From assembly GCA_021731145.1 (NCBI GenBank), contig JAKFXX010000026.1, positions 11,196 to 75,195 of the forward strand: DNA of 64,000 bases, written 5' to 3'. The notes beneath the pieces are model-generated. The model did no database searches, was not told where the DNA came from, and saw only the letters and a program-made list of their open reading frames with translations. The position numbers and the translations under genes were made by a program. Shown here in pieces: positions 26,101-61,414 of the stretch. The first letter of the stretch is position 1; the number at the start of each line of letters is the position of its first letter. This DNA comes from Gammaproteobacteria bacterium. GTDB taxonomy: Bacteria > Pseudomonadota > Gammaproteobacteria > Ga0077554 > Ga007554.

Positions 26101-26155
26101 CCAGCATCATCAGCAGGCGCTGGGTCAGTGCGAATTGGATCAGGCGTGACAACAT
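23102..26155 (-). CDS. czcA: Heavy-metal efflux RND transporter, CzcA/CusA family (HME-RND)
   Basis: 1017 aa with 12 TM helices and two large periplasmic loops. The N-terminus MLSRLIQFAL...IDAFPDVSSTQV is typical of the HME family. The start overlaps the adaptor-gene stop (ATGA). Confidence 0.85.
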   Translation of the reverse strand: MLSRLIQFALTQRLLMMLVVALLVGGGALAVKNLPIDAFPDVSSTQVKIIIKAPGMTPEEVEARITAPIEVEMLGIPHQTMLRSETKYAITDVTVDFADGTDIYWARQQVTERFNSVRGDLPPGISGGIAPLTTPLGEMFMFTIEGGGLSLMERRSLLDWVIRPALRTVPGVADVNVLGGLARVFEVAPDNVRMTARGVTLQMLQQALEANNRNDGAGRINDGEEALLVRAEGRIKTLDDARAIVVKNDRGVPVRVADVAEVRIGALTRYGAVTRNGQSETVQGLVLGLRGANARQVVAGVRAKLDEIKPSLPPGVNLQVFYDRGHLVERAVTTVAKALLEAIALVVILLVLFLGNLRAAVTVALALPLAALVTFILMSQFGMSANLMSLGGLAIAIGMLVDAAVVVVENSVAHLAHEQAVRLPRLHVIYRSVREVAVPVTAGILIIITVFLPLLTLQGLEGKLFSPVALTIVFALSASLLLSLTVIPVIASFLLKSTGHGDPWLVRTLARLYTPLLDWSLAHTRTVVTVALVALALTAVVYTQIGKTFMPTMDEGDIIIGVEKLPSITLEQSAALDLKIQQEIMKRVPEVTGIVARVGSDEIGLDPMGLNQTDTFLVLKPREQWRMKSKEALIEELRKVMDGIPGLVYNFTQPIEMRVSEMIIGVRGDLAIKLFGTDIDTLNKKAEEIATAVRSIKGSQDVYTTRNAGMQFLKIDIDRLAAGRLGLSVDELENTLRAQLEGNRVGTIHEGMRRTPLILRTGVGSPATFANLLITLPDGHNVPLATVAKLTRVEGPVKVDRQRAARMVVVIANVQGRDLVGFVEEARRVVTQRVPLPNGYHLEWGGQFENQQRAAARLSIVVPVAIGLIFLLLFSTFGSVRQSILVLSNIPFAMIGGVFALWLSGEYLSVPASVGFIALLGIAVLNGVVLVSYFNQLRTQGMALAQVVVEGARRRLRPVMMTASITAFGLAPLLFATGPGSEIQRPLAIVVIGGLITSTLLTLVLLPILYRRFGESR

Positions 26156-27318
26156 CACTCGTGCCCCCCGCTGCCGCCCAATCCCATCCACGCGCCTTTC
26201 ACCGCCGCCACGCCGCGCACTACGACGCGCTCATCGCCACGCAGCGCGCCTGCAATTACGCTACGGCCATGCTGTTCGCTGACGATCTGTACGGGTTGGG
26301 CGCGGAAGCCCTGCGCGGTCTGCACGAAAATCATACTCTGCTTCGCGCTACGCGCCACGGCTGTAACAGGTACGCTATAACGCTGCCCAGCAGTGGGGGC
26401 GGTCAACTGCGCCTCGATGAACTGGCCTGGCCGCAGACTATCAGTGCCACGTGTGATCTCGGTGCGCAGCAGCACAGTCTGGTTTTCGGGGTCCACGTCA
26501 CGGCCGATCATGATCAGACGGCCCGATGCACTTGTCCCCCGGAGGGGAGGCTGCGCGCTGCCCTTCAGGGTAGATGCAGCGGGCACTTCCACCCCTTGGC
26601 CAACGCTCAGTCCGTTGACCCGCTCCTGCGGCACGCGCAACTCCAGCCACAGCGTATCCAGCCGTGCCATGCGGTAGAGCGGTTCGAGGCGATCCACGCG
26701 CTGCCCGGCCACCACCTTTTGTTCCAGCACGATCCCGGTGATGGGCGCTGTTATGGTGAGCGTACCGCTCAGTGCGCGTGTCTGCTCCAAGCGGCGCAAC
26801 GCGGCTTCATCCATCCCTGCCAGGCGCAAGGTTTGACGATGCTCGTTGAGTGCCGACGCCAATTCCTCGTGGCGGCTTTTGGTGGTCAGATAACGGCGCT
26901 CAGCGATGATGCCGTCCTTGAACAACTGCTCATCGCGCGCCAACTCAGACTGCGCCAGCCGCACCTGGGTCAGCGCCTGGAGATAGCTGCCTTGTTCTGT
27001 GACAAGCTCCGTGCTGCGGAGAGTGGCAAGGGCTTGCCCCTTGTTTACCTTGTCACCCACAGCGACCAGCAGCGCCTCCACCAGCCCGCTTTGGGAAGCG
27101 CTGACCACGCGCTCCTGCGCTGGCGGAATCACCACACGCGCCGGGAAGCGGCTGCTCAACACCACCGACGCCGGTTCCAGCGGCGCAACCATGATGCCCA
27201 GTGTCTTGAGTTGAGCGGGAGTGAAATGGATATCGTCAGTGGCCTGCGCCGCAGGGGAGGTCACTGTAATGGCTAGCAAACACGTCATTAACAGATAACA
27301 GGCTATTATTTTTTTCAT
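26155..27318 (-). CDS. czcB: Efflux RND periplasmic adaptor subunit (CzcB/CusB family)
   Basis: Signal peptide, membrane-fusion-protein fold (coiled-coil hairpin, beta-barrel), 387 aa. Confidence 0.8.
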   Translation of the reverse strand: MKKIIACYLLMTCLLAITVTSPAAQATDDIHFTPAQLKTLGIMVAPLEPASVVLSSRFPARVVIPPAQERVVSASQSGLVEALLVAVGDKVNKGQALATLRSTELVTEQGSYLQALTQVRLAQSELARDEQLFKDGIIAERRYLTTKSRHEELASALNEHRQTLRLAGMDEAALRRLEQTRALSGTLTITAPITGIVLEQKVVAGQRVDRLEPLYRMARLDTLWLELRVPQERVNGLSVGQGVEVPAASTLKGSAQPPLRGTSASGRLIMIGRDVDPENQTVLLRTEITRGTDSLRPGQFIEAQLTAPTAGQRYSVPVTAVARSAKQSMIFVQTAQGFRAQPVQIVSEQHGRSVIAGALRGDERVVVRGVAAVKGAWMGLGGSGGHE

Positions 27319-28586
27319 GGTATTTCTCCAGCGGCCTGGTTATAGCGCGCGATATCTCTTTGTAATTGAAGTCCAAGCTGCTGTTCGCCGCGCTCTGCGG
27401 CAAATGCCAGGGTCTGCACGCGCAGCAGGGCCACCAGATCAATCTCGCCGATGGCAAAGGCCTTTTTCATCAGGCGCAGATTTTCCTGTGCCAGGCGGTT
27501 TTGCTCGACGGCCAGATCAAACTCGGCGCGCGCCAGCGCCAGGGCGTGCTCCGCCTCGTCCAGCGCCAGATCCAGCTCGCGCTTGAGCGCATCACGCGTA
27601 CTCTGTGCTTCGGATTGAGCTACCACCGAGGCGGCCAGCCGGGGGCCAGCATGAGCTGTGCTGTGCAGGGGCAGTGTCAGTGCGATGCCGACGCTGTCGT
27701 TACCCGCGCTTCTGAGCGTTGACTGCTCACGCCGGGCGCCCAGGGTAAGCAGGGGATTGCCGCGCCGCTCTTCCCTGGCCAGTTGTGTCTCGGCGGCGGC
27801 TTGCGCCACGCGGTTTTGACCATCGGCAAGCAAGGGGTGATCGTCAGTGACGGCGGTTTGCGTTGACGGGGCTTCGTTACGCTCCGCCGGCAACGCTTCG
27901 ACGCCTGTTAGCACCTCATAACGGTGCAGCGCGTGCTTGAGTTCGGTGTGGGCGCGCAGGTATTGCGCCTGGCGGCGTAGCGTTTCATCCTGTGCCAGCA
28001 ACAGATCGACCTTGGCCAGTTCGCCTGCCGTCATACGCTTGCGCACATCCTGCTCCAGCGCCTGTGCGGCACGCCATTGCTGCTCCGTCAGCGTCAGATC
28101 ATTTTCCATCAAGGCCACATCCCACAGGCGCTCGCGCACCTGCCCGGCCACCTCCAGCCGCAGGGCATGCTCCAAGGCCTTCAGCCCCATCCCCGCTTGA
28201 TCGGCGAGCGCCTTTCTCGCCTGTTTCTGTCCGAGCAGCCACAGCGGCATCTGGACGCCGCCCTCCCACTCGGTCAGCCCATCCCGGCTGCCTATCTGGT
28301 CGGTCTGGTGGCGCAATATCAACGCCGTGGGGCCTGCCAGCGGGTTGCCCGCCTGGCGGCGCAGCGCATCCACCTGCGCACCACGCGGCGCGATCACCTG
28401 CTGGCGCGGGTAACGCTCAAAGGCTTGCTGCGTCACATCATGCAGCGTCAGGCGCGGGTCCACCACCACACGGATGGCGTCTTCGGCAGGCACCACCGCC
28501 AAGGCATGTCCCGTCAGGCAGGCCCAAAGCACCATACCCCACATAGGGGCATACGACGTCGCGCCCCGCAAGGGCATCAATCGCAT
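27315..28586 (-). CDS. czcC: Outer-membrane efflux protein (TolC/CzcC family)
   Basis: A 423-aa outer-membrane-factor fold with duplicated coiled-coil repeats. The gene order C-B-A is of the czc type. Confidence 0.75.
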   Translation of the reverse strand: MRLMPLRGATSYAPMWGMVLWACLTGHALAVVPAEDAIRVVVDPRLTLHDVTQQAFERYPRQQVIAPRGAQVDALRRQAGNPLAGPTALILRHQTDQIGSRDGLTEWEGGVQMPLWLLGQKQARKALADQAGMGLKALEHALRLEVAGQVRERLWDVALMENDLTLTEQQWRAAQALEQDVRKRMTAGELAKVDLLLAQDETLRRQAQYLRAHTELKHALHRYEVLTGVEALPAERNEAPSTQTAVTDDHPLLADGQNRVAQAAAETQLAREERRGNPLLTLGARREQSTLRSAGNDSVGIALTLPLHSTAHAGPRLAASVVAQSEAQSTRDALKRELDLALDEAEHALALARAEFDLAVEQNRLAQENLRLMKKAFAIGEIDLVALLRVQTLAFAAERGEQQLGLQLQRDIARYNQAAGEIP

Positions 28587-29178: not shown

Positions 29179-29970
29179 CTATTTTAAAATAGGCAGACCA
29201 GCACCCGCCCCGGCAAGGGGCATTTCCAGGGTATGAATCTTGTTCGTATCCTTTTCCACCAGTTGCAGGCGCAACAGCTTGGCCGTAGCCGCTTCGCCAG
29301 GGAAGAAGATAAACCCGTAAGCGAGATCGCCAGGACGCACCGGCTTGTTCTGCAACGACTTGTCACGGAAGTCATCCATCACCCGGCCACGCGCCTCATC
29401 CGCCGAAGCCATGCCACCCGCACCTCCAAGCACCGCTCCCGCAGCTACGCCCGTTGCGGCACCTCTTCCGGCACTGCTGGCGACATCCTCACCCGTAACC
29501 ACGCCCACCGCAGCACCCACCAAGGCGCCCGCCACGCCGCCGAGAAAACCGCCGTAGGCACCTTCGCTAAAGATCTTTTTGGTCTGCGCATACTTGGTAA
29601 CCCGCTCGTAGGCGAAACGGTCCTGCAATACCGGCCAGAGCTTGCCATCGCCATCCACCAAAAAGGTCTGACCCGGATTAATCGCCAGCGGACTCGAACC
29701 CTTATTGTCAAACACCACCTGTACCGGCAGCAGACCCGCGCCGCGCACGTCGAACCCAAAGGCTTGCCCCGCCTTGTCCTTGTCAGCATAGGCCTCGGCA
29801 CCGACCGTCGCCCCGGCGACCACCGTGGCATTGGAATACTGGGAAGGCAAGAGAAAAGGCAACGGCTGGGCCTTATACGCTGTCGCGCACGCGGCAAGGG
29901 CTGCTGACAAACCCACCGCAATGAAAAATGAGAATCCTTTTCTTCCTAACGGCACATATCGCATGACCAC
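29179..29970 (-). CDS. Lipoprotein with a glycine-zipper region (hypothetical)
   Basis: Lipobox LAAC; a Gly/Ala-rich GxxxG-type stretch (GGFLGGVAGALVGAAVGVVTG). Confidence 0.55.
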   Translation of the reverse strand: MVMRYVPLGRKGFSFFIAVGLSAALAACATAYKAQPLPFLLPSQYSNATVVAGATVGAEAYADKDKAGQAFGFDVRGAGLLPVQVVFDNKGSSPLAINPGQTFLVDGDGKLWPVLQDRFAYERVTKYAQTKKIFSEGAYGGFLGGVAGALVGAAVGVVTGEDVASSAGRGAATGVAAGAVLGGAGGMASADEARGRVMDDFRDKSLQNKPVRPGDLAYGFIFFPGEAATAKLLRLQLVEKDTNKIHTLEMPLAGAGAGLPILK

Positions 29971-38969: not shown

Positions 38970-39533
38970 ATGACAAGCATTACCAGGATAATCACGCTTT
39001 TACTTTTATGTCCACTCATGGTGGCGGGGATCGGCCACGCGCAGGAAATCTCCGCTGGCGCTACAGCACAAACATTGCGGGGCGAGCTTTTCTCCCTGGA
39101 CGATAAGGTGCAATCTCTCCAAAAATCGGCGGCGGACATAAACCGCGACCTCACGATCCTTGAGGAAGAGGCGCAATTTCCGGAAAAATCCCGCATCTCG
39201 GCTTTTCTGGGCATGGACCATCTGCCGCGTTTCGATCTGCACTCGGTTGATTTAAAGCTCGATGGCAAAACCGTGTCGGCGCATGCCTACACACCCGAGG
39301 AAAAATCGGCGCTGCGGCGTGGCGGCATGCACCGCATCCATATTGGCAAGCTGAGCACGGGGGAGCACAGACTGGTGGCGGCTTTCACAGGGAAAACCCC
39401 CACCGATCCGCAATACAGCAATACCGTGTCATTCAATTTCAGGAAAGAACAGAAACCCAAAGCCATTGTTCTGAACATTTCCGACCTATTGCAGGATGAC
39501 ATGCCGGAAATCACCGCGCGCGAAATACGCTAA
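38970..39533 (+). CDS. Secreted coiled-coil protein, first gene of the TPR/ExbBD/TonB operon
   Basis: Signal peptide MTSITRIITLLLLCPLMVAGIGHA, a coiled-coil segment and a beta-rich C-terminus. There is a 12-bp gap to the next gene. Confidence 0.55.
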   Translation: MTSITRIITLLLLCPLMVAGIGHAQEISAGATAQTLRGELFSLDDKVQSLQKSAADINRDLTILEEEAQFPEKSRISAFLGMDHLPRFDLHSVDLKLDGKTVSAHAYTPEEKSALRRGGMHRIHIGKLSTGEHRLVAAFTGKTPTDPQYSNTVSFNFRKEQKPKAIVLNISDLLQDDMPEITAREIR

Positions 39534-39544
39534 CAGATAATGCG

Positions 39545-40990
39545 ATGAAACAACGTGGCATAAAACATCAGATAGCTCAGTGGGCGTTATGGCTTGCCGC
39601 AAGCCTCGCCTTGCCGGCAGGCCATGCGGCGGACGATCTGCGCGACGACATCGCCTGGAAAGTGAACGACCCGCGCCTCGGCGAGGCCTTGTTCAGCTTT
39701 TACCAAGGCGATTATTTCTCCGCCATAACGCGAATCGAAGCCTCCCAGAAAACGCAGGCGCTGGCTGAACAGCAGGACGAGGGCGAACTGCTGCTTGGCA
39801 TGCTCTATCTTTCCTATGGCATGAGCAACGAGGCGCAGAAAACTTTTTCTCGCCTGTCCAGCAAGAACTCCTCCCCCGCCGGGAGCGCCGCCACACTCTA
39901 TCTTGCCCAAATCCTTTACCGGCGGGATGATCTTGCCGAGGCCGAAAAACTTGTCGCTAAAATCAACGAAAATCTCCCCCCCGGCCTGCGGGAAAAGCGG
40001 GATCTGCTGCTGGCCGATATCCTGATCGCAAAAAAACAATACGCCGAAGCCGAAAAGGCGCTGCTTCGCCTAAGTGATGACTCAGACGAGGGCTATTACC
40101 GCCGCCATAACCTCGCGGCAAACATGATCAAGGCGGGGCAAACTCAACAGGGCCTGGCACTGTTGAATAAAATCAGCAACACCTCTCCGGACAGAATCAG
40201 CAACAACCTCGAAATGAAAACGTTGCAGGACAAGGCCAACCTCGCGCTTGGTTACAGCAGCCTGCAGGCGAAAAAACCGGGGGAGGCAAAGGCCTATTTT
40301 AATAAAGTCCGCCTGGACGGTTATTTCTCGTCCAACGCATTGCTGGGCATGGGGCTGGCCGAGGCAGCGCTGGGCCAACGGCAACGCGCCATCATCCCCT
40401 GGATGGAGCTGCAAAAACGTGACGCCAGAATCCCGGAGGTGCAAGAGGCGCTACTCGCCGTGCCTGACGCCTTGTTCAAGCTCGAATCTTACAAAGAATC
40501 GCTACAGCATTATGAGAGCGCCGTCTCCGTATACAAAGCGGAAATTGAGCGCATCACCTCATCCATGGAGGCCATCCGCGCCGGGAAGATGCTGGACATT
40601 CTGGGCAAGGATGCGGCCAGTGAGTCACAGTGGCAGGCGGGCCTGCGCATGCTCAAGGATCAACGCGAAAGCCGTTATCTGCCGTGGCTGATGGAAAACC
40701 CGCTGTTCCAGAAGGCCATCACGCTCTACCGTAGCGCCCTCGCCCAGCAGGACATCCTGAAAGCACGACAAGCCAGCCTTGGACGGGACAACACCGCTGC
40801 GTTTGGTAGCGCCATCGCACAACAGTTGACGGAAGCACAGACGGTCATACAAAAAACCGGGACGTATCTTCAGGGGTTGGCCATGTCTGATCTGGAGCAG
40901 CGCAAGCAGCGCCTGGGCAACTATCTTGCCCAGGCGAATATCAGCGTGGCCCAGCTCTATCACAACGCCTCGGTGCGCGGGGATGAATAA
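39545..40990 (+). CDS. Periplasmic tetratricopeptide-repeat protein (481 aa)
   Basis: Signal peptide followed by multiple TPR-like helices (Y/A/L periodicity). Confidence 0.7.
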   Translation: MKQRGIKHQIAQWALWLAASLALPAGHAADDLRDDIAWKVNDPRLGEALFSFYQGDYFSAITRIEASQKTQALAEQQDEGELLLGMLYLSYGMSNEAQKTFSRLSSKNSSPAGSAATLYLAQILYRRDDLAEAEKLVAKINENLPPGLREKRDLLLADILIAKKQYAEAEKALLRLSDDSDEGYYRRHNLAANMIKAGQTQQGLALLNKISNTSPDRISNNLEMKTLQDKANLALGYSSLQAKKPGEAKAYFNKVRLDGYFSSNALLGMGLAEAALGQRQRAIIPWMELQKRDARIPEVQEALLAVPDALFKLESYKESLQHYESAVSVYKAEIERITSSMEAIRAGKMLDILGKDAASESQWQAGLRMLKDQRESRYLPWLMENPLFQKAITLYRSALAQQDILKARQASLGRDNTAAFGSAIAQQLTEAQTVIQKTGTYLQGLAMSDLEQRKQRLGNYLAQANISVAQLYHNASVRGDE

Positions 40991-40991
40991 C

Positions 40992-43900
40992 ATGAAACTC
41001 CGTCGCGGCCTGGTCACTTTGCCCCTGTTGGTGCTGGCGGCCTGCACCCAGGTTAAAGACGACAGCCAGACCCTGAAAAACCTCGAACATCGCAGCGTCT
41101 CCGTTACAAAAGATACCACCCTCCCGGACAGCCGCAGCAAGGCCATCGAGCAATATCAATCCATTGCAGGCACGACGAATGACAAATCCGTCCAGCGCGA
41201 GGCAAAACGCAAGATTGCCGATCTGGAAGTGGATAATGCGGAGGCCATTTTCCTGGAAAAGATCAAAAAATCCGAGCTGGACGCCCAAACCAGCGCGCCG
41301 CCGCCCCCCGTTGACAACCGCAATGCGATTAATTTGTACCAGGAGCTGTTGCAGGAGCAAGCACCCAAATCCGACGCTGAAAACACGCTGTATCAACTGG
41401 CGAAAGCGTATGAGCAAAGCGGCGATTATCAAAATACCCTGCAGACACTGACCCGCCTGGCCAATGCCTATCCCAAGATAGGCTACATGGATGAGATCCA
41501 GTTCCGGCGCGGGGAAATTCTGTTTACATTAAGGGACTATGCTCAGGCCGAGAAGGCCTATGCCTCCCTTTTGCCCATGAAAAAATCCCAGCTTTACGAG
41601 ATGGCGCTGTATAAACATGGCTGGAGCCTGTACAAGCAGGAACAGTATTTGCCCGCCCTCGATTCATTCTTTGCGATTCTGGACAAAAAATTTCCTGTGA
41701 ACAAGGCCGTAGCGGATGACTTTGTCTTGCCGCGCGGAGAACAGGAGTTTGTAAAAGATACGCTGCGCGTTATCAGCCTCAGCTTTTATCACCTCAATGG
41801 CGCGGGATCAATCACCTCGTATCTTTCTGCCAAAGGTTATCGCCCGTATGAACACCTCCTGTACAAATCCCTCGGTGACCTTGCCCTTGAGAAAGACCGT
41901 GTCAGCGACGCCGTAAACAGTTACAAAGCCTTCATCAAAACGCATCCAGGCCATCCCTACAGTGTGCTCATGCAGCAGAAAATCATCGACGCCTATAAAA
42001 GGCCTGAGTTCGCATCCTTGCTCCTGCCTGAAAAACGGGAGTTTGTCCGCGTTTACGATGAATACAATCAACGACGCATCAGCAACTCCACAAAAACATA
42101 TGCCGAACACCTGATTTACGGTGACAAAATCGCCCAAGACAAGATCACCTCCTATTTAAGGGTCATCCTTGAGGACTTGGCCCGTCATTATCATGCTGAA
42201 GCGCAAAAGAGCAAGGAGCGCGCGGCATACAAGGAAGCCATGGATTGGTATACAAAATTCCTGAAGAACTTTCCCGCGGATAACGACGCCCCAGGCATCA
42301 CTTTCCTGCTCGCTGAAAGCTTGTACGAAAATGGACGCTATGCCGATGCGGTAACGCGTTACGAAAATGTCGCTTATGATTTTCCCACCAATCAAAATGG
42401 TGCCGAAGCGGGCTACGCGGCCCTGATCGCCTATCAGAAACATGGGGAAAAACTCTCGGGCTATGAAAAAAATCTGTGGCGGCGCAATGCCGTGGTGAGC
42501 GCGCTGCGGTTCTCCGAAAAGTATCCCAAGGACAAACGGGTGCCCGCCATTCTGGCCTCCGCGATGGAAGAGCTGTTCTCTCTAAAGCAGTATGACAAGG
42601 CCGAATTCGCCGCGCGGCTCATTCTGAAAATGGAGCCACCCGCTGATATCAAGCAGCGCCGCATGGCGGCAACCATCATCGCGCACTCCGAGTTCGAACG
42701 GGATAATTTTGAACGCGCGGAGGCGAGCTATCGTGAGGTATTGAATCTGCTTCCCGCAGATGATCCCGGCAGAGTGGAGATCATGGAGCATCTGGCATCC
42801 GCAATATACCGGGAAGGTGAACAATCCCGTACTGCGGGCGACATGCCGACGGCTATCCAGCACTTCCTTCGGGTCGGCGTGGCGGCGCCTGCATCACCCA
42901 TCCGCCTCTCGGCGGAATATGATGCCGCTGTCGGCTATATGTCGCTAAACGACTGGAGTAACGCGCTGCGCATCTTCAGCCAGTTCCAGAAAGCCTATCC
43001 TGACAACGCCTTCCAGGCCGATGTGTCACGGCAAATCGTAACGGCCTACCTCCAGTTGGACCAGCCATCCAAGGCCGCTGCCGAACTTGAAAAGACGATT
43101 GCCAGCAACAAGGATGCCCCGGTTCGCCAAGACGCCGCGTGGCAAGCCGCAGAGCTTTATGAGAAAGCCAAGGATACCAAGAACGCTACCAGGGTCTATG
43201 GCTTGTATGTCCAACAGTTCCCCAGCCCGCTGGAGCAGGCCATCGAGGCGCGCCGCCGCCTTGCGGAAGCCTATAAACAAGACAATGACACGGGCATGCA
43301 AAATTATTGGCTGAAGGACATCATCAAGGCGGATCGGGAAGGTGGCGCGGAGCGCACACCGCGCACCCGCCAAACCGCAGCCCATGCCTCAATCACATTG
43401 GCGGATCTCGCCTATCAGGCATTTACTCAGGCACGGCTGATTGAGCCGTTGCAACAAAATCTGAAAATCAAAAAGGAAAAAATGGAAGCGGCCTTGCAGG
43501 CCTACGGCACTGCCGCAGAGTTTGGCGTGGCGGATGTAACAACTGCCGCGACGTACCAGATGGCAAAGATATACAGCGACCTCAGCCGAGATCTGCTTGA
43601 ATCCCAGCGCCCCGAAGGACTCACCCCCGAGGAGCGGGAGCAATATGATGTACTCCTGGAAGAGCAAGCCTTTCCGTTTGAAGAGAAGGCCATCCAGATA
43701 TATGAGTCGAATATCCGGCGCGTGTCCTCCGGCATCTATGACGAATCCGTCAGAAAAAGCTTTTCCGAACTGGGTAAACTATTGCCTGTGAAGTATGCAA
43801 AACACGAGAAAAGCGAACCCTTGACCGGCGTTACGTTGAGCAATGACGGCAAGGATGAAGACGAAAAGGCATTAATTAAAGCCACCGAACAAGTCCCGCC

Positions 43901-44183
43901 GAACATCGAGGCCTACAACCACCTTGGGATTCATTACCGCAACAGCGGGCGTTTCGATGACGCGCGCAATGCCTACGAAAAAGCCCTGTCCACCGACCCG
44001 AATCATTCATCAATCCACCTGAACCTTGGCATTCTTTACGATCTTTATCTGCGTGATGCCGTCAAGGCATTGGAACAGTATCGACTCTATCAAGGCCTGT
44101 TACCCGCCGCAGATAAACAAGTGGGGATGTGGATCTCGGATCTGGAAAAACGCAAAATTGGTGCGGAGGTGAAGGATAAATGA
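40992..44183 (+). CDS. Large TPR-repeat lipoprotein (1064 aa)
   Basis: Lipobox LLVLAACT, and more than 15 TPR-like repeats (e.g. YQLAKAYEQSGDYQNTLQTLTRL). The start is 1 nt after the stop of the upstream TPR gene. The C-terminus resembles canonical TPR (AYNHLGIHYRNSGRFDDARNAYEKAL). Confidence 0.7.
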   Translation: MKLRRGLVTLPLLVLAACTQVKDDSQTLKNLEHRSVSVTKDTTLPDSRSKAIEQYQSIAGTTNDKSVQREAKRKIADLEVDNAEAIFLEKIKKSELDAQTSAPPPPVDNRNAINLYQELLQEQAPKSDAENTLYQLAKAYEQSGDYQNTLQTLTRLANAYPKIGYMDEIQFRRGEILFTLRDYAQAEKAYASLLPMKKSQLYEMALYKHGWSLYKQEQYLPALDSFFAILDKKFPVNKAVADDFVLPRGEQEFVKDTLRVISLSFYHLNGAGSITSYLSAKGYRPYEHLLYKSLGDLALEKDRVSDAVNSYKAFIKTHPGHPYSVLMQQKIIDAYKRPEFASLLLPEKREFVRVYDEYNQRRISNSTKTYAEHLIYGDKIAQDKITSYLRVILEDLARHYHAEAQKSKERAAYKEAMDWYTKFLKNFPADNDAPGITFLLAESLYENGRYADAVTRYENVAYDFPTNQNGAEAGYAALIAYQKHGEKLSGYEKNLWRRNAVVSALRFSEKYPKDKRVPAILASAMEELFSLKQYDKAEFAARLILKMEPPADIKQRRMAATIIAHSEFERDNFERAEASYREVLNLLPADDPGRVEIMEHLASAIYREGEQSRTAGDMPTAIQHFLRVGVAAPASPIRLSAEYDAAVGYMSLNDWSNALRIFSQFQKAYPDNAFQADVSRQIVTAYLQLDQPSKAAAELEKTIASNKDAPVRQDAAWQAAELYEKAKDTKNATRVYGLYVQQFPSPLEQAIEARRRLAEAYKQDNDTGMQNYWLKDIIKADREGGAERTPRTRQTAAHASITLADLAYQAFTQARLIEPLQQNLKIKKEKMEAALQAYGTAAEFGVADVTTAATYQMAKIYSDLSRDLLESQRPEGLTPEEREQYDVLLEEQAFPFEEKAIQIYESNIRRVSSGIYDESVRKSFSELGKLLPVKYAKHEKSEPLTGVTLSNDGKDEDEKALIKATEQVPPNIEAYNHLGIHYRNSGRFDDARNAYEKALSTDPNHSSIHLNLGILYDLYLRDAVKALEQYRLYQGLLPAADKQVGMWISDLEKRKIGAEVKDK

Positions 44184-44449
44184 AGCCATCAGCGCTTTTG
44201 ATCATGGGAATTTTATATTTATCCGCAGGTGTTGCGGCGGCGGAGGACTCTATCGATTCCTCGGGCACAAAAATCATAGGCGATTCAGACATGCCAAAAA
44301 CGCTCTACATCATCCCATGGAAGAAACCGGAGCCTGCCCCGCCGCCAACCCGGTCAATGAGTGAGTTCGCCAACGCCGCCCTTGCAACACTGGAACGGGA
44401 TACCCTGTTACGCCAGATGCAATACCACGCGATTTTTAGTGCCAGATAA
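44180..44449 (+). CDS. Small secreted Pro-rich protein (89 aa)
   Basis: Signal peptide MKPSALLIMGILYLSAGVAAA. There is a 4-bp ATGA overlap with the TPR lipoprotein gene. Confidence 0.45.
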   Translation: MKPSALLIMGILYLSAGVAAAEDSIDSSGTKIIGDSDMPKTLYIIPWKKPEPAPPPTRSMSEFANAALATLERDTLLRQMQYHAIFSAR

Positions 44450-44536
44450 AGCAGCATTTCTTCTCATCAACCATCAAGATTATTGTCTGAAATGCCGAAT
44501 ACAAGGCAGGGCATGACGCAGCACTAGGAGATCAGT

Positions 44537-45190
44537 ATGGATTTTTTCAGTTCCTCAATCCGTTTTTTTCAAGACGGCGGTTTTATTATGTACCTCATCC
44601 TTGGGGTGTTCGCCCTGGGGCTCGCCATCGCCATCGAGCGCTATGTCTTCCTGACGTCCGCCCGCAACAAAAACCGGGAAATGTGGGACAAGCTGCTGCC
44701 GGTGCTAAAACGTGGCGAATACAAAGCCGCACAAGACATGATGTCGCAATCCAGCGCCGCCATCTGCAATATTTTATCTTACGGGTTGTCCCGCGTTGTT
44801 ACCAGCCGGCGGCATGACGATGTTGAAACTGCCATGGAAGAAGGCCTCCTGGAAACCGTTCCGCGCCTGGAAAAACGCACGCACTATCTCACCACCTTCG
44901 CCAATGTGTCCACCCTGCTGGGGTTGCTCGGCACGGTTATCGGCCTGATTGATGCGTTTACCGCCGTCTCCAGCGCCAACCCCTCCGAAAAGGCCGCGTT
45001 GCTTTCCGCCAGTATTTCCGTGGGTATGAACTCAACGGCATTCGGATTGATGGTGGCGATACCGCTGCTGCTGATTTATAGCGTGCTTCAGTCCAAAACC
45101 GTTGAACTGGTGGACAGCCTGGAAATGGCGTCCGTGAAAGTATTGAACATCATCAAGGAGCACTCCGACAAGCAAGGCTCACCCCAATGA
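44537..45190 (+). CDS. exbB: MotA/TolQ/ExbB-family proton channel protein
   Basis: Three TM helices and a conserved C-terminal region (FANVSTLLGLLGTVIGLIDAF...SVGMNSTAFGLMVAIP). Confidence 0.8.
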   Translation: MDFFSSSIRFFQDGGFIMYLILGVFALGLAIAIERYVFLTSARNKNREMWDKLLPVLKRGEYKAAQDMMSQSSAAICNILSYGLSRVVTSRRHDDVETAMEEGLLETVPRLEKRTHYLTTFANVSTLLGLLGTVIGLIDAFTAVSSANPSEKAALLSASISVGMNSTAFGLMVAIPLLLIYSVLQSKTVELVDSLEMASVKVLNIIKEHSDKQGSPQ

Positions 45191-45690
45191 GACGCCGCAC
45201 CCTTCTCGCACGGAACGAAGGTGACGAGCTGGACCTCACCGCCATGATCAACATGATGGTGATTCTGGTGTGCTTCCTGCTGACCTCGGCGGTATTTTCG
45301 CGCATCACGGTGCTGGAGCTGAATATGCCGCCTGCCGCTCAGGCATCATCCAGCAGCGCACCCCAACCGAAAAAGGAGCTTCTTCTGGAGGTTATCCTGC
45401 GCAAAAATGCCATTGAAATAAATGACAGGAACGGCAGCTTTTTTGAGCGGATCAATAATTTATCCGGCGGTTACGACATCAAATCCCTGGCGCAAAATCT
45501 TCATCAGTTAAAGGCACGTTTCCCGGAAAAACGGGACGCCTCCATCCTGCTGGAAGATGACATTCCCTATGACCTTCTGGTGCAGGTGATGGATGCGCTA
45601 CGCGAGGAAAGAAGCGGGGCGATGGGATCCGCCGAGCTTTTCCCTGAAATATCCATTGGCGACGCCCCTGCCGGCAAGAAAATAAAATAA
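45187..45690 (+). CDS. exbD: ExbD/TolR-family biopolymer transport protein (copy 1)
   Basis: N-terminal single TM helix (LTAMINMMVILVCFLL), an ExbD fold and an ATGA overlap with exbB. Confidence 0.75.
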   Translation: MRRRTLLARNEGDELDLTAMINMMVILVCFLLTSAVFSRITVLELNMPPAAQASSSSAPQPKKELLLEVILRKNAIEINDRNGSFFERINNLSGGYDIKSLAQNLHQLKARFPEKRDASILLEDDIPYDLLVQVMDALREERSGAMGSAELFPEISIGDAPAGKKIK

Positions 45691-45711
45691 CAAGGGATAC
45701 GGATAGTCGAT

Positions 45712-46200
45712 ATGAAAATGTCACGGCGCGCCAGACGCATGGAGCGGCACCACGCTCGAACAAAGCGGGGCGGCACACTCAACCTGATTGCCCTGGTGGA
45801 TATTTTCACCATCCTGGTGTTTTTTCTTGTGGTGGGCGCCTCCGAGGTGGAAACCTTGCCCAACACCAAGGTGGTAAAGCTTCCCGAATCCATAGTTGAA
45901 AAACAACCCAAGCAAACCATTCTGATCATGGTAAGTGGAACCGACATCATCATGCAGGGCCGCAAAGTGGCCTCCGTAAAAGACGCGCTGGACGCCCCCG
46001 AAGATGTCATCGCGCCACTGAAAAGCGAGCTTGAGCATCAGGCTGGGCGGCAAGACAGCAAAACCAGCAGTGATATCACCATCATGGGAGACCGGCAAAT
46101 TCCCTACAAACTTTTGAAGAAAATCATGGTTACATGTACACAAGCCAATTACAGCAACATTTTTCTCGCTGTGATGCAAAAATCAAGAACGGTGGAGTAA
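45712..46200 (+). CDS. exbD: ExbD/TolR-family biopolymer transport protein (copy 2)
   Basis: LNLIALVDIFTILVFFLVV TM helix with a periplasmic domain. It is a paralog of the upstream copy. Confidence 0.75.
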   Translation: MKMSRRARRMERHHARTKRGGTLNLIALVDIFTILVFFLVVGASEVETLPNTKVVKLPESIVEKQPKQTILIMVSGTDIIMQGRKVASVKDALDAPEDVIAPLKSELEHQAGRQDSKTSSDITIMGDRQIPYKLLKKIMVTCTQANYSNIFLAVMQKSRTVE

Positions 46201-46206
46201 TAAACG

Positions 46207-47235
46207 GTGGCGGTTCATTATCATTCCCCCGATCTGCCATGGGCAATGACCACCCAGGACGAACACCGTTTTCGGGTGATCCTGACATCGGTGCTGGTAG
46301 GCTTTCTGGTGATTTCGAGCGTCATCACGTTTATCCAGGTTCCAAAAATCACCCGGGAACAAGCCGAGGAGGTGCCGCCGCGACTGGCCAAGCTGGTGCT
46401 TGAGCGCAAGCAGCTCCCCCCGCCAGTCGCAAAGCCCTCGCCCGTAAAACCAGTGGCCACAAAGCCGGAACAAGCACCCAAGCCACTGCCTGCGCCGAAA
46501 GCCGAGCTGAAAATCACGCCCCAGCCCGAGAAAAAAATCGAGCCTGTGCAAGTGGCCAAACAAGAGCCCGCGCCAACACCGGCACCGCTGCCCGCAGAAC
46601 CGCCCAAGGTCAACATCGAGGCTGCGCGCAAGAAGGCGGCCAGCTCAGGCCTGCTGGCGTTAAGCAACGATCTGGCGGCATTGCGCGACAAGCCCGTCGT
46701 ATCCAGCACTCAAACGGACGAGAAGCTTATCCAGCCCACCAGGAACGAGCCCTTTGTGCAGCGCTCGATGATCACATCCGGTACGGCGCGCGGGGGCGAG
46801 GGGGTGAAAACTGCCAGCGCCAGCCGCAACATCAGTGGTACGCAACTGGCGGAACGGACGACGACACGCGTCAACAACCCGCAACCCACGGCGCGCCCTG
46901 GCGAGACTGTAGCGCCTAAACCGGCCACGCAAAAAGGCGGCGGCTCGCGCACCGACGATGAAATTCAGTTGGTGTTCGATAAGAACAAGGGGGCGCTGTA
47001 TTCGCTGTATAACCGCGCGCTTCGGCAAGATCCATCCCTGCAAGGCAAGGTAGTGCTCAAGCTGACCATCGAACCCTCCGGCAAGGTCAGCGCTTGCGAG
47101 GTGGTGTCCAGCGCGATGGAGGCACCCGAGTTGATACAAAAGATCGTGGCGCGGGTATTGCTTTTCGACTTCGGCGCCAAAGAAGCCGCCACCACCGTGA
47201 CCAAACTTCCCATCGACTTTTTGCCGTCGTCATAA
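46207..47235 (+). CDS. tonB: TonB-family energy transducer
   Basis: N-terminal TM helix, a Pro/Lys/Ala-rich spacer (PPPVAKPSPVKPVATKPEQAPKPLPAPK...) and a C-terminal TonB domain (YSLYNRALRQDPSLQGKVVLKLTIEPSGKV). Confidence 0.8.
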   Translation: MAVHYHSPDLPWAMTTQDEHRFRVILTSVLVGFLVISSVITFIQVPKITREQAEEVPPRLAKLVLERKQLPPPVAKPSPVKPVATKPEQAPKPLPAPKAELKITPQPEKKIEPVQVAKQEPAPTPAPLPAEPPKVNIEAARKKAASSGLLALSNDLAALRDKPVVSSTQTDEKLIQPTRNEPFVQRSMITSGTARGGEGVKTASASRNISGTQLAERTTTRVNNPQPTARPGETVAPKPATQKGGGSRTDDEIQLVFDKNKGALYSLYNRALRQDPSLQGKVVLKLTIEPSGKVSACEVVSSAMEAPELIQKIVARVLLFDFGAKEAATTVTKLPIDFLPSS

Positions 47236-52889: not shown

Positions 52890-53831
52890 TTATATTTTCG
52901 CCAAAGAAGGCACGACACTAACCGGCCCCTGCTCTTCCTCCGCATGATACGATGAGCGCACCAGCGGCCCCGCTTTCACCCACGCAAACCCCAGCGCGCG
53001 CGCCTCTTGCTCGTAACTGGCGAAGGTCTCCGGGGTTATGTACTCTTTGACCGGCAGATGATGGCGCGTCGGGCGCAGATATTGACCCAGCGATACGCGG
53101 CTCACGCCTATGGCGCGCAGGTCACGCAGTACCTCGGTCACCTCCTCGCGGCGCTCGCCCAATCCCAGCATCAACGACGACTTGGCCGCCACGCCCGGCT
53201 GGCTGGCGGCCCGCTCCAGCAGACTCAACGAGCGCTCATAGCGGGAGCCCTTGCGCACGGTCTTGTATAAACCGGGGACGGTCTCGACGTTGTGCCCCCA
53301 CACCAGCGAGCCTGCTCCGTCCAACGCTGCGGTAATGGTCTGTATCGCCTGCTCCTGGCACTGCTGAAAATCCGGCGTCAGCAGCTCCAGGCCAATGCCG
53401 GGCTTGCGGCGGCGCAGCTCGCGGATGGTATCTGCGAATACTTTCGCCCCGCCGTCCGGCAGATCGTCGCGATTCACCGACGTTAGCACCACATACCCCA
53501 GGCCCATGTTGATGACGGCATTCGCCACGCGGCGCGGCTCGTCGAGATCATATGAACCGGGGCGACCGGCCTTCACCGCGCAGAAACCACAGGCGCGGGT
53601 ACAGGTATCCCCGAGCAGCATGAAGGTGGCCGTGCCGCGGCTCCAGCATTCGCCCCGGTTTGGGCAACGCGCCTCCTCGCACACCGTGTGCAACGCATTG
53701 CCGCGCACGGCATCCGCAGTCAGTGCGTATTGGGAATGATCACCGAGATGCTGGCGTATCCACTGCGGCATACGCCCTACATTGGGCTGTGCAGCGGTCT
53801 GATCAAAAACAGGCGTTATAGCTTGGGACAT
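52890..53831 (-). CDS. lipA: Lipoyl synthase
   Basis: Two Cys clusters (CEEARCPNRGEC and the radical SAM CTRACGFC), about 313 aa after trimming to MSQAITP. Confidence 0.9.
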   Translation of the reverse strand: MSQAITPVFDQTAAQPNVGRMPQWIRQHLGDHSQYALTADAVRGNALHTVCEEARCPNRGECWSRGTATFMLLGDTCTRACGFCAVKAGRPGSYDLDEPRRVANAVINMGLGYVVLTSVNRDDLPDGGAKVFADTIRELRRRKPGIGLELLTPDFQQCQEQAIQTITAALDGAGSLVWGHNVETVPGLYKTVRKGSRYERSLSLLERAASQPGVAAKSSLMLGLGERREEVTEVLRDLRAIGVSRVSLGQYLRPTRHHLPVKEYITPETFASYEQEARALGFAWVKAGPLVRSSYHAEEEQGPVSVVPSLAKI

Positions 53832-53854
53832 GGGTTTCCTGGAGCTGCAAAACA

Positions 53855-54070
53855 AAAAAAGGGCGGCAGATAAACCCCACGCTTATCTGCCGCCCCTCTG
53901 TCCTGTGTACCTGAGAGCTTGAGCCCCTTCGGCGGGCCTGTCCGGGCATGCCGGCGACCACTCTCCAGAGTCAACCCTCTCCCCCGGTCCTTTTGCCTGA
54001 GCGATTCCGGGCGGTTTGCGCCTTCGGCGTCCCGCATCTTAAAATGAGCGCGGGATCTCTTCCAGGGGAG
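53855..54070 (-). ncRNA. Tandem glycine riboswitch (two aptamers plus an intrinsic-terminator expression platform) upstream of lipA-gcvTH...
   Basis: Minus-strand reading shows aptamer 1 (GGAAGAG...ACGCCGAAGGCGCAA...CUCAGGCAAAAGGAC) and aptamer 2 (GGGGAGAGGGUUGACUCUGGAGAGU...GCCGAAGGGGCUCAAG...CUCAGGUACACAGGACAG). A terminator GGGCGGCAGAUAA-loop-UUAUCUGCCGCCC and U7 follow, about 25 nt before the lipA ribosome-binding site. Confidence 0.8.
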
Positions 54071-54212
54071 GGATGTTGAAGCGATAATATACTATGACTG
54101 TGCCAGCGACGCCAGAGCGACGCAACATTTGGGGCCAGAACATAAGTAGTATTAAATATGCTATAACCACTACTACACAACACCTATCAAACAGGCCGCC
54201 AAGGTTACCCGA

Positions 54213-59640: not shown

Positions 59641-59791
59641 TGCAACTGCCTTTGCCCTCCCTCGTCATCCTCCTAAAGATACACGCCCCTGCCGATACTC
59701 CTTTCGCACGACCACAACGCAAAGGAAGGCCTTTACCGCTCCGGGCTGCCGTGGTCACCGCCGCAAGAATATGAATGGAGAAATAGAAGTC

Positions 59792-61414
59792 ATGCACAAT
59801 ACCGTGAAGAAACTGTGGGCCTTGTTGCTGGTCGCCGCGCTGGCGGGGTGTGGCGGAGGGGATAATGCGTTCAAGGGTCCCGGCACATCCACGGGGACGG
59901 TACCAATTACTAGCACTCCGACAGTTCAGATGTCCCTGGCAGTGGGTGTAACGACGCTTTCTGCCGGGGGTAGCACGGGCATTACCGCCAAACTGTCAGA
60001 TGCTAACACGGGCGCGCCTTATACTACCGAAATTGATGTCACTTTCACCTCGGTCTGCGCGGGGACGCAGGGCGCCACGCTGATTTCACCCGTCAAATCT
60101 GCGAATGGTACTGCCATAAGCACCTATGTCGCCAAGGGAGGATGTGAAAGCAGCGACACCATTACTGCGACGGCCACGGCACCCAACGGGACGATCACCG
60201 CCAGCGCCACCATTAATGTATTGCCTGCCGTGTTGGGCTCCATCCAATTCGTATCCGCTATACCCTCCAGTATTGCATTGAAAGGAACGGGTGGTGCGGG
60301 ATTGTCTGAAACTTCCATCATCGCATTCAAAGTGTTAAATTCGGTTGGGGGGGTAGTGCCGAACAAGGATGTGATTTTTTCCCTGGATACCGATGTGGGC
60401 GGGTTGAGCCTTTCCCCGCTCACAGCCAAAACCGACGCCAACGGTCAGGCTCAGACCATTGTGCAGGCTGGCACCATCCCTACACCTGTGCGCGTGACAG
60501 CAACCATCATCGGCTCCTCCCCTGTCATCAGTACGCAGTCGGATCAGTTGGCGATTACCACCGGCATACCGGATCAGGATAGCATTTCACTTAGCGCGGA
60601 AACCCTGAACCCGGAGGCCTGGCATGTCGATGGAGTAACGGTAAAAATAACCGCCCGATTTGCCGATCGATTTAACAACCCGGTGCCGGATGGAACCGCC
60701 GTCACCTTCACGACCGAGGGCGGATCAATAGGTGGGTCGTGTAATACTGTGAAGGGCGCCTGTTCGGTGGATTGGGTGAGCCAAGAGCCGCGCCCTTCCG
60801 ATGGCCGGGTGACAATCTTGGCAACAGCCATCGGCGAAGAAAGCTTTGGGGATGCCAACAGCGACGGCAAGTTTGGCAATGGCGACAGCTTCCCGGCCTC
60901 TAACGACCTACCGGAAGCGTTTCGTGATGACAACGAAAATGGTCTGCGGGATGCCACCGAGTTCTCTGTGGATTTCAACCGTAACGGTATCTATGATGCC
61001 AAGGATGGCAAATTCAACGGTATCCTGTGCGAACACAGCACGTTGTGCGGTTCGACAAAAACACTAAATGTGCGCGACTCTACGGTGCTGGTGATGGCGG
61101 ATTCGTTTGCAAAAATCGTTATCAATCCCGGCGGCATCGACGTCTCAGGCGGGCCGCAGACAGTGATGATTACAGTAGGGGATTTTGCGCATAACCAACC
61201 CATGCCGAAAGGCACGACCATCAATATCGCTACGGATAACGGCAAGTTGTCAGGGCCAACAAGCTACACCGTGGGAAACACCAGCTTCAATGGGCCGCTG
61301 GTCTACGAGATAAATGTTGCCACTGACGGAACATCGAGTAGTGGTACGCTGACGGTAACGGCGACAGCACCGGGCGGCGACACAAGTTATGCAACGATAA
61401 GCGTCCAAGACTGA
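59792..61414 (+). CDS. Lipoprotein with tandem bacterial Ig-like (Big_1/invasin-like) domains
   Basis: Lipobox LAGCGGG; repeated Thr/Ala/Val/Gly-rich beta-strand motifs (ITATATAPNGTITASATINV; VRVTATIIGSSPVIS; LTVTATAPGGDTSYATISV) and a central Asp/Asn-rich segment. Good ribosome-binding site (ggag) upstream. Confidence 0.7.
   Translation: MHNTVKKLWALLLVAALAGCGGGDNAFKGPGTSTGTVPITSTPTVQMSLAVGVTTLSAGGSTGITAKLSDANTGAPYTTEIDVTFTSVCAGTQGATLISPVKSANGTAISTYVAKGGCESSDTITATATAPNGTITASATINVLPAVLGSIQFVSAIPSSIALKGTGGAGLSETSIIAFKVLNSVGGVVPNKDVIFSLDTDVGGLSLSPLTAKTDANGQAQTIVQAGTIPTPVRVTATIIGSSPVISTQSDQLAITTGIPDQDSISLSAETLNPEAWHVDGVTVKITARFADRFNNPVPDGTAVTFTTEGGSIGGSCNTVKGACSVDWVSQEPRPSDGRVTILATAIGEESFGDANSDGKFGNGDSFPASNDLPEAFRDDNENGLRDATEFSVDFNRNGIYDAKDGKFNGILCEHSTLCGSTKTLNVRDSTVLVMADSFAKIVINPGGIDVSGGPQTVMITVGDFAHNQPMPKGTTINIATDNGKLSGPTSYTVGNTSFNGPLVYEINVATDGTSSSGTLTVTATAPGGDTSYATISVQD

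Follow-up and report, generated by a model that had tools for sequence, protein, structure and literature searches.

What kind of machine is encoded where a proton-channel gene of the MotA/TolQ/ExbB family, two ExbD/TolR genes and a TonB-like gene share one run of co-directional genes with two tetratricopeptide repeat (TPR) proteins? The question is posed by positions 38970-47235 of a 64,000-nucleotide stretch of gammaproteobacterial DNA (contig JAKFXX010000026.1; the whole stretch is called the window below), where the list of open reading frames (ORFs) and their translations place eight genes, all on the + strand and numbered 1 to 8 here (Table 1). An original prediction, made from the letters and ORFs of the DNA, had read them as an ExbB-ExbD-ExbD-TonB system with TPR partners and implied that this layout was undescribed. 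The ORFs lie where it placed them, and Pfam confirms the TPR (genes 2 and 3), MotA_ExbB (gene 5) and ExbD (genes 6 and 7) assignments. The layout, however, is that of the 'core complex' reported in 2011 (PMC3169522), a unit common in Gammaproteobacteria. The cluster is a rearranged instance of that family and not a new TonB layout. Very likely it is a member of the Agl-Glt-like core complex, and as such a stand-alone relative of the Myxococcus machines for gliding (Agl-Glt) and spore-coat formation (Agl-Nfs). The family itself was already known; the new, minor points are an invariant Asn in one ExbD paralog and a divergent GltC-like allele.

Relation to the Agl-Glt core complex

The first lead to Agl-Glt came from a scan with NCBIfam models, in which gene 8 matched the AgmX/PglI model and the C-terminus of gene 3 weakly matched the GltE model. 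GltJ and GltG, the TonB-like proteins with which Myxococcus glides, were formerly called AgmX and PglI. GltC, GltD, AglR, AglQ and AglS are not covered by NCBIfam; for these the link is provided by the published gene tables, together with an exact agreement in gene composition, order and size. The genes gltC, gltD, gltE, gltG, aglR, aglQ and aglS were reported to cluster in Gammaproteobacteria, in one betaproteobacterium, in Geobacter and in Fibrobacter (Luciano et al. 2011, PLoS Genet 7:e1002268, PMC3169522). The core complex was described there as the Group B genes plus one extra gene without a Myxococcales homologue, and has been proposed as the minimal ancestral form of the two Myxococcus machines, for gliding and for the spore coat. 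Table S3 of the same paper lists GltC-like proteins of 550-692 amino acids (aa), GltD-like proteins of 933-1016 aa and GltE-like proteins of 162-263 aa, then one skipped locus tag, AglR-like proteins of 205-272 aa, two ExbD/TolR proteins of 162-188 aa and GltG-like proteins of 321-334 aa.

A contig from an Acidiferrobacterales metagenome-assembled genome (locus L004) joins these rows to the window. It carries a canonical cluster that encodes proteins of 720, 940, 211, 98, 216, 173, 163 and 311 aa, and its order and sizes agree with the rows GltC/GltD/GltE/(locus-tag gap)/AglR/AglQ/AglS/GltG of Table S3, as compared for Marinobacter, Saccharophagus, Shewanella, Hahella, Cellvibrio, Teredinibacter, Thioalkalivibrio and Methylibium (PMC3169522). 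Genes 1-8 of the window map onto the parts of L004, with the GltD-like and GltE-like parts fused and the N-terminal module of the GltC-like protein encoded by a separate gene. GltC-, GltD- and GltE-like TPR modules, a small gene, one MotA/TolQ/ExbB gene, two ExbD/TolR genes and a GltG-like gene thus follow one another in the window in the order by which the family is recognized. Translated into these terms, the 'duplicated ExbD' of the original prediction is the AglQ/AglS pair, its giant TPR proteins correspond to a GltC-like protein and to a fusion of GltD with GltE, and its two small secreted proteins are members of conserved families.

A system already characterized by experiment, with a known substrate, would have told against the original prediction. 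This is not the case here: the function of the core complex in non-gliding bacteria was called unknown both in the 2011 description and in a later paper (PMC3169522, PMC3858216), and our literature searches yielded no subsequent work on what the gammaproteobacterial cluster does. Wartel et al. suggested a 'basal transport machinery' whose cargo might be sugar polymers, proteins or lipids (PMC3858216).

Table 1. Features of the core-complex cluster (window positions).
Feature	Position	Strand	Description
gene 1	38970..39533	+	187 aa; secreted accessory protein: signal peptide, helix, beta-sandwich
gene 2	39545..40990	+	481 aa; periplasmic TPR protein with signal peptide, GltC-like
gene 3	40992..44183	+	1063 aa; TPR lipoprotein, GltD-like body fused to GltE-like module
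gene 4	44180..44449	+	89 aa; small secreted protein, 'additional' core-complex gene
spacer	44450..44536	.	87 bp; divides Glt-like scaffold genes from Agl-like motor genes
gene 5	44537..45190	+	217 aa; MotA/TolQ/ExbB-family proton-channel subunit, AglR-like
gene 6	45187..45690	+	167 aa; ExbD/TolR paralog 1, Asn at proton-binding Asp position
gene 7	45712..46200	+	162 aa; ExbD/TolR paralog 2, transmembrane Asp kept (LVDIF)
gene 8	46207..47235	+	342 aa, GTG start; GltG-like TonB-family transducer
divergent-allele segment	39291..41090	+	3' half of gene 1, whole of gene 2, first ~33 codons of gene 3

Conservation, fusions and a divergent allele

When the eight window proteins were searched by tblastn, all parts were found adjacent, co-oriented and in order at each of eight other loci (L001-L008), at 33-99% protein identity; the sole part missing is gene 1 in L005, at the end of a contig. 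This co-occurrence bears out the supposed tie between the TPR genes and the motor genes. Order is constant down to 33-45% identity, and the loci differ only in which parts are fused or split. A GltD-GltE fusion is shared by the window, L001-L003, L005 (2079-5243) and L006; in L007 (9001-13557) the TPR part of GltC is fused to GltD in a protein of 1518 aa that has lost the GltD lipobox; and in L004 (6842-9004) the beta-sandwich module encoded by gene 1 is fused to the GltC-like protein. The GltD-GltE fusion and the module that is now free, now fused point to which parts of the machine touch.

A local break in identity sets the window apart from its closest relatives. Within the divergent-allele segment (Table 1) its nucleotide identity to L001-L003 is 59-60%, whereas among themselves these relatives reach 86-90%; outside this segment identity to L001-L003 is 94-95% in pfkB and 88-91% in most of the cluster. 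Likewise, the gene 2 protein is 52-53% identical to its counterparts in L001-L003, versus 89-99% for genes 3, 5, 6, 7 and 8. Because identity drops locally while the three relatives stay alike, the sequences suggest that the GltC-like module has been replaced by a divergent allele in one lineage, probably by recombination. The GltC-like module may accordingly be read as a variable and possibly partner-specific end of the machine, with the replaced allele marking its likely specificity-determining part.

The TPR scaffold and the small secreted proteins

Gene 2 encodes a protein with Pfam TPR_16, TPR_19 and TPR_14 repeats. It aligns to residues 178-709 of the 720-aa protein of L004 (37% identity, E 1e-78), which holds the GltC position of the canonical core cluster, and its own position and size class fit the GltC-like (MXAN_2541) column of Table S3 (PMC3169522). 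The preceding gene 1 matches the remainder of the same protein, residues 9-180 (BLASTP E 1e-24). It has no Pfam match, and its signal peptide was read from the sequence. An AlphaFold2 model (pLDDT, the predicted score in the local distance difference test, 78) shows a long helix at residues 29-69 followed by an eight-stranded beta-sandwich at residues 75-186; the secreted coiled coil that had been expected here was therefore right as to signal peptide and helix and incomplete as to the sandwich. Fold searches returned generic Ig/transthyretin-like matches only, and the beta-sandwich is not diagnostic. A word-indexed search yielded 10 close relatives only, and the link to GltC-like proteins came from pairwise BLAST.

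The same module occurs as a free protein of 176 aa in L007 and of 202 aa in L008 (the latter with 44% identity, E 3e-38). We rejected the notion that genes 1 and 2 are a broken or frameshifted GltC pseudogene: each has a signal peptide of its own, and they are split in L001-L003 and L006-L008, the fused form being found only in L004. Rather than a broken gene, gene 1 is better taken to encode a ninth module that is sometimes fused. This module, a helix plus beta-sandwich, was not found listed as a core-complex component in the parts of the 2011 paper used here (PMC3169522). In the databases, a 187-aa homolog of gene 1 (P0246) bears the NCBI label 'AraC family transcriptional regulator', almost certainly a misannotation.

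Gene 3 most likely starts at the ATG at 40992, which yields a product identical to a database protein (P0001); the ATG at 40983 (1066 aa) is the alternative, and the length of 1064 aa given originally fits neither. The protein has Pfam TPR repeats and a lipobox (LLVLAAC). Residues 1 to about 945 form a GltD-like body, and residues about 947-1055 a GltE-like C-terminal TPR module, which matches the separate 211-aa TPR lipoprotein encoded after the GltD-like gene in L004 (46% identity, E 2e-27). With the NCBIfam GltE model (cut-off 225 bits) the module scores 26.6 bits and the stand-alone L004 protein 50.4 bits. By length, most gene 3 homologs belong to one of two classes, of ~930-950 aa (86-89% query coverage) and ~1055-1100 aa (97-100%). 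A tblastn search of gene 3 against plasmids gave no match. The JGI names of GltD-like homologs ('cellulose synthase operon protein C', 'TolA-binding protein' and 'BamD') are generic TPR carry-overs.

The lipobox lacks Asp at position +2 in all non-fused GltD-like and all stand-alone GltE-like proteins examined. In E. coli, a lipoprotein without Asp at +2 is sent to the outer membrane. If this rule carries over, the lipoboxes suggest that GltD- and GltE-like lipoproteins are anchored in the outer membrane, and the gene 3 protein is probably anchored there as well.

Gene 4 also encodes a signal peptide and has no Pfam match. It is present in the same position at all loci, and in L004 that position is taken by the 98-aa gene (37% identity, E 2e-16). 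An exhaustive search found 427 representative clusters (50% identity) of this family at E <= 1e-3, mostly 85-170 aa long. The family sequences (P0251-P0400) share the motif G-N/D-x-E/D-L/M-P-K-x-L-Y-I-V/I-P-W-K followed by a C-terminal helix-like segment; the LPKxLYIVPWK stretch is near-invariant and a C-terminal DR(D/E)VF.R...Y segment is conserved. The Pro-rich patch that had earned the protein its first description as secreted and Pro-rich is not conserved in the family, though its signal peptide stands. One match of the representative search, the repetitive 2393-aa protein P0253, was discarded as spurious. Gene 4 occupies the position of gltF in Myxococcus and has a comparable strand-then-helix layout; purely by analogy it may be a GltF-like bridge.

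Between genes 4 and 5 lies the largest intergenic gap of the window cluster, and the same junction is the largest in L004-L008 (42, 84, 95, 129 and 211 bp). This spacer marks the boundary between the scaffold module and the motor module, and might hold an internal promoter or uncouple translation; otherwise the genes are tightly coupled. From gene 1 to gene 8 the spacings are 11, +1 (or -8), -4, 87, -4, 21 and 6 bp, so that the '1-12 bp gaps or ATGA overlaps' of the original prediction do not describe two of the junctions (87 and 21 bp).

The motor and its resemblance to Tol-Pal

Gene 5 is the only MotA/ExbB gene of the cluster (PF01618, 96.8 bits). It scores 62.8 bits with the TolQ model (cut-off 221) and 46.2 bits with the ExbB model (cut-off 206.2), both so far under the cut-offs that it is an equivalog of neither. 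Its best solved relative is TolQ (E 7e-8; ExbB, 2e-7), over the full three-helix topology, and by analogy it is presumed to form the pentamer of a 5:2 motor. Genes 6 and 7 both match PF02472 (62.1 and 48 bits) and are 24% identical to each other. They reach 24.6 and 29.9 bits with TolR (cut-off 127.3) and 18-23 bits with the ExbD models (cut-offs 123-216).

Two memberships can be rejected on this evidence. A canonical ExbB-ExbD-TonB system fails on its ExbB and ExbD equivalog scores, and a Vibrio TonB2/TtpC system on the single PF01618 gene and the lack of a Pfam match, and so of DUF3450, in gene 1. The original prediction had anticipated both: it held that the cluster was not canonical TonB, and the ExbB, ExbD, TolQ and TolR models all stay far below their cut-offs; and it saw no TtpC.

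The two ExbD/TolR paralogs are not equivalent. In a HMMER alignment of gene 6 to E. coli ExbD, 'aMINmm' falls on 'pfIDvm', placing Asn at the proton-binding Asp25; aligned in the same way, gene 7 keeps Asp. The same pairing, Asn in paralog 1 and Asp in paralog 2, recurs in 7/7 loci (the window, L001 and L004-L008). Myxococcus AglQ and AglS both carry the conserved Asp, according to a review (PMC9389320), and the aligned sequences suggest that the Asn may be a feature of this gammaproteobacterial clade. The invariant asymmetry offers a handle on proton use by a heteromeric 5:2 motor.

These affinities raise the alternative of a divergent Tol-Pal-like system, whose motor and TonB/TolA-like arm would pull outer-membrane TPR lipoproteins (compare CpoB/YbgF and Pal) for outer-membrane attachment or constriction. 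Gene 5 is indeed slightly nearer TolQ than ExbB, both ExbD paralogs match TolR first, TolA C-terminal domains occur among the fold matches of gene 8, and with 101 bits gene 3 passes the tol_pal_ybgF model (cut-off 90.1), some of its homologs being named 'tol-pal system YbgF family protein' by NCBI. The YbgF score, however, is summed over several TPR stretches that repeat within a protein of four times the proper length, the scores with TolQ and TolR remain far under equivalog cut-offs, and neither TolB nor a Pal/OmpA-like gene is encoded in the cluster or the scanned neighbouring genes. Gene 8 belongs to the AgmX/PglI domain family instead, and the genes present are precisely those that make up the Agl-Glt core complex. 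Tol-Pal membership fails and we regard this alternative as improbable, although in functional terms a Tol-Pal-like role in envelope integrity is possible.

The transducer and the TonB alternative

Gene 8 scores 61.2 bits with NF033768, the NCBIfam model of the AgmX/PglI C-terminal domain built on Myxococcus GltJ/GltG tails, and passes its cut-off of 40; the L004 ortholog scores 69.7 bits. Matches to the GltJ and GltG equivalog models are weak (41 and 39 bits; cut-offs 450 and 650). The protein has a short cytoplasmic N-terminus (YHHSPxLPW), a transmembrane (TM) helix at residues 16-42, a Pro/Lys-rich linker and a C-terminal domain at residues 250-338. An alignment of 40 sequences shows two conserved periplasmic segments, ARKKAASSGLLAF..LA.LRD and QRS.ITSG..GINTA.LSR, and the GTG start is supported by these conserved blocks together with the YHHSPxLPW motif. 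AlphaFold2 predicts a disordered linker between the TM helix (pLDDT 92) and the C-terminal domain, which is modelled as alpha-beta-beta-alpha-beta (pLDDT 84-91). The top 21 PDB matches of the modelled C-terminal domain in Foldseek are all TonB, HasB, FusB or TolA C-terminal domains, with probability 1.0 and TM-scores of 0.56-0.63 (target-length normalised) for TonB, HasB and FusB. As judged from the model, the C-terminal domain has the TonB/TolA fold.

The TonB-like label first given to gene 8 agrees with the modelled fold, but the sequence models for the TonB C-terminal domain stay below threshold: PF03544 (TonB_C) reaches 20.2 bits (gathering threshold 24.6) and TIGR01352 21.2 bits (threshold 27.1). 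A profile of the gene 8 family reaches E. coli TonB only at E 0.06. The TM helix of TonB carries a conserved Ser/His motif, SHLS. Across the 40 aligned sequences there is no conserved His within the gene 8 TM helix; the conserved His and Ser lie instead in the cytoplasmic YHHSP motif. NCBI names relatives of gene 8 'AgmX/PglI C-terminal domain-containing protein'.

Could the cluster nonetheless be a TonB system of a specialised kind, powering one or more TonB-dependent transporters whose genes lie elsewhere and using its TPR proteins as accessories, as in Vibrio TonB2 with TtpC and TtpD? The fold speaks for this, with HasB, Helicobacter pylori TonB and FusB as best matches, and so do those gene 8 relatives that pass PF03544 or TIGR01352 and the many that JGI annotates as 'TonB family protein'. 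We nevertheless consider it highly improbable. There is no TonB-dependent receptor gene in or next to the cluster at any of the nine loci; in the window, none was seen among the scanned flanking genes (~9 kb upstream and 6 kb downstream) or the larger ORFs farther out, as the original prediction had stated for the cluster. No TtpC-like second MotA/ExbB gene and no DUF3450 gene are present, and the TM helix and family profile described above depart from TonB. Moreover, the homologous Myxococcus domain was modelled on GltD, and not on a receptor plug (PMC11761067).

The transducer is widespread. A word-filtered search that scored only 8000 candidates returned >2200 clusters of gene 8 relatives (90% identity), and many carriers of gene 3 and gene 8 relatives are sulfur-oxidising Gammaproteobacteria. 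Together with the 427 clusters of the gene 4 family, these numbers mark the core complex as a widespread system.

A proposed mechanism

We infer the stoichiometry, contacts, outer-membrane localisation and output of the machine from what is observed here (gene content, homology, domain folds and conservation of order) and from models of its Myxococcus relative. In an AlphaFold model of the latter, an AglR5-AglQ-AglS motor receives the TM helix of GltG, GltG is wrapped along a groove of GltD, GltE sits on the GltD C-terminus, GltC touches GltD, and GltF bridges GltC and GltG (PMC11761067). AglR also interacts with GltG in a two-hybrid assay in Myxococcus (PMC3169522, PMC11761067).

By extension, gene 5 would form a pentameric proton channel around a heterodimer of the gene 6 and gene 7 proteins, of which only one carries the protonatable Asp. 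The TM helix of gene 8 would dock on this motor and its Pro/Lys-rich linker would span the periplasm, so that the conserved middle segments and the TonB-fold C-terminal domain could bind the gene 3 (GltD+GltE) lipoprotein. At the outer end, gene 3 would be joined to the GltC-like gene 2 protein, the beta-sandwich protein of gene 1 and the small gene 4 protein, the last of which may bridge as GltF does in Myxococcus. Proton flow would then be converted into force or movement on an outer-membrane-proximal TPR scaffold and not on a TonB-dependent receptor. The natural C-terminal fusion of GltD and GltE agrees with the modelled contact of GltE with the GltD C-terminus (PMC11761067). As a working guess, what the machine moves or positions is a component of the outer membrane or the surface. 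The original prediction had favoured an output different from siderophore import, and this is the most reasonable reading.

Several points weigh against placing the window cluster in the Agl-Glt family. The link for GltC, GltD, AglR, AglQ and AglS rests on published tables (PMC3169522), not on an alignment or tree of our own. The Asn of paralog 1 stands against the Asp of both AglQ and AglS (PMC9389320), and motor chemistry may differ. All contacts and the 5:2 stoichiometry are drawn by analogy. The GltE, GltG and GltJ equivalog models score 27-41 bits against cut-offs of 225-650, which makes the window proteins distant relatives and not orthologs in the NCBI sense. Finally, Myxococcus GltC requires the GltA/B porins, and these are not encoded at the cluster.

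It is extremely improbable that the cluster by itself drives gliding or surface translocation. For this reading speak its homology with the motor and the periplasmic transducer by which Myxococcus glides, the many sulfur-oxidising Gammaproteobacteria among its carriers, and the gliding, by unknown means, of some Pseudomonadota such as Beggiatoa, Thioploca and Lysobacter (PMC13104615). Against it, no outer-membrane barrels, adhesin or cytoplasmic platform are encoded in the cluster or the scanned neighbouring genes, gene 8 is without the cytoplasmic FHA domain of GltG, and the discoverers of the core complex give reasons against gliding by the cluster alone (PMC3169522).

A broader extension of the core-complex reading is rather unlikely but worth stating. 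Beside Ton and Tol, the core complex would be a third general class of trans-envelope force transducer, with an asymmetric Asp/Asn stator dimer and, as output, movement of an outer-membrane-tethered TPR scaffold; the fast-evolving, recombining GltC-like and beta-sandwich module would set the surface cargo, be it polymer, lipoprotein or adhesin. If so, it could underlie unexplained surface transport or gliding of some sulfur-oxidising Gammaproteobacteria.

Genomic context

The cluster has a guanine-plus-cytosine (GC) content of 54.6%, versus 57.9% and 59.6% in its 10-kb flanks and 59.2% in the remaining window, and is the lowest-GC 8-kb stretch of the window. The dip first estimated by eye is thus real but modest, and the flanks are below the ~63% assumed for them. 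GC at third codon positions is 0.58-0.71 in the cluster vs 0.69-0.80 in the flanks. Recent horizontal transfer as the cause of the dip was rejected: the 55%-identical relative L006 keeps both the layout and the pfkB / cluster / dgkA-gcvP context, which argues for vertical inheritance in this lineage. Promoter and terminator scans gave hits at or near chance level and were not used.

The upstream neighbours are metH and the genes of a Zn peptidase, of ATP sulfurylase, of an ankyrin protein and of a PfkB kinase; on the downstream side follow dgkA and glycine-cleavage genes. Farther out in the window are a resistance-nodulation-division (RND) efflux operon and a PAS-GGDEF-EAL protein. As the flanking genes are unrelated housekeeping genes, the cluster is a self-contained unit. 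Elsewhere in the window, a tandem glycine riboswitch (53888-54074, - strand; two RF00504 aptamers, 63.5 and 34.9 bits) precedes a radical-SAM gene (52890-53855), followed on the same strand by gcvT, a split gcvP1/gcvP2 and the dgkA that abuts the cluster. The RND operon (23102-28586, - strand) is complete, with an outer-membrane factor, a HlyD-type adaptor and an AcrB-family pump. Two ORFs, of 263 aa (29179-29970, - strand) and 547 aa (59771-61414, + strand), have no Pfam match at E <= 1e-5.

Comparison with known systems

The Vibrio TonB2 cluster has the composition TtpB-TtpC-ExbB2-ExbD2-TonB2-TtpD, TtpB being a DUF3450 protein. What the window shares with it is a cluster in which a Ton-like motor is accompanied by TPR protein and by additional partners, secreted or in the membrane, but it has no TtpC, no DUF3450 protein and two ExbD genes, and its TPR genes lie upstream and are much larger. 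With Tol-Pal and ExbB-ExbD-TonB it has in common the PF01618/PF02472 motor superfamily and a transducer that crosses the membrane once, has a Pro-rich linker and ends in the TonB/TolA fold. It departs from them in its presumed heterodimeric ExbD pair (a homodimer in those systems), in having no TolB/Pal or receptor partner, in an AgmX/PglI-family transducer and in more than 1500 aa of obligately linked TPR scaffold.

The Myxococcus machines are closer. Agl-Glt and its paralog Agl-Nfs, which serves spore-coat polymer transport, combine a proton-motive-force-driven motor of AglR and an AglQ/AglS pair with a TonB-like GltG/NfsG (PMC3169522, PMC3858216, PMC11761067). The TPR lipoproteins GltD and GltE, the TPR protein GltC and, as proposed, a motor that pulls an outer-membrane-linked scaffold are likewise shared with the window. 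The window cluster lacks the GltA/B/H/K barrels, the CglB adhesin, GltI, GltJ and a link to AglZ or MglA; GltA/B/H, GltK and CglB are also absent from the neighbouring genes scanned within the window. Myxococcus GltG has 650 aa and a cytoplasmic FHA domain, whereas gene 8 has only ~15 residues before its TM helix, and the GltF position is held in the window by the unrelated-looking gene 4 protein.

Closest of all is the core complex itself, with the same gene families, order and size classes, a TonB-like protein of ~310-370 aa that ends in the AgmX/PglI tail, three TPR modules, one small secreted protein and a self-contained cluster (PMC3169522). The window differs from it in the fusion of GltD and GltE, in a short GltC-like protein, whose module is divergent when set beside close relatives, and in a helix plus beta-sandwich module encoded by a gene of its own. 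What looked like a novel TonB variant is explained by an existing family, a widespread machine seen here in rearranged form.

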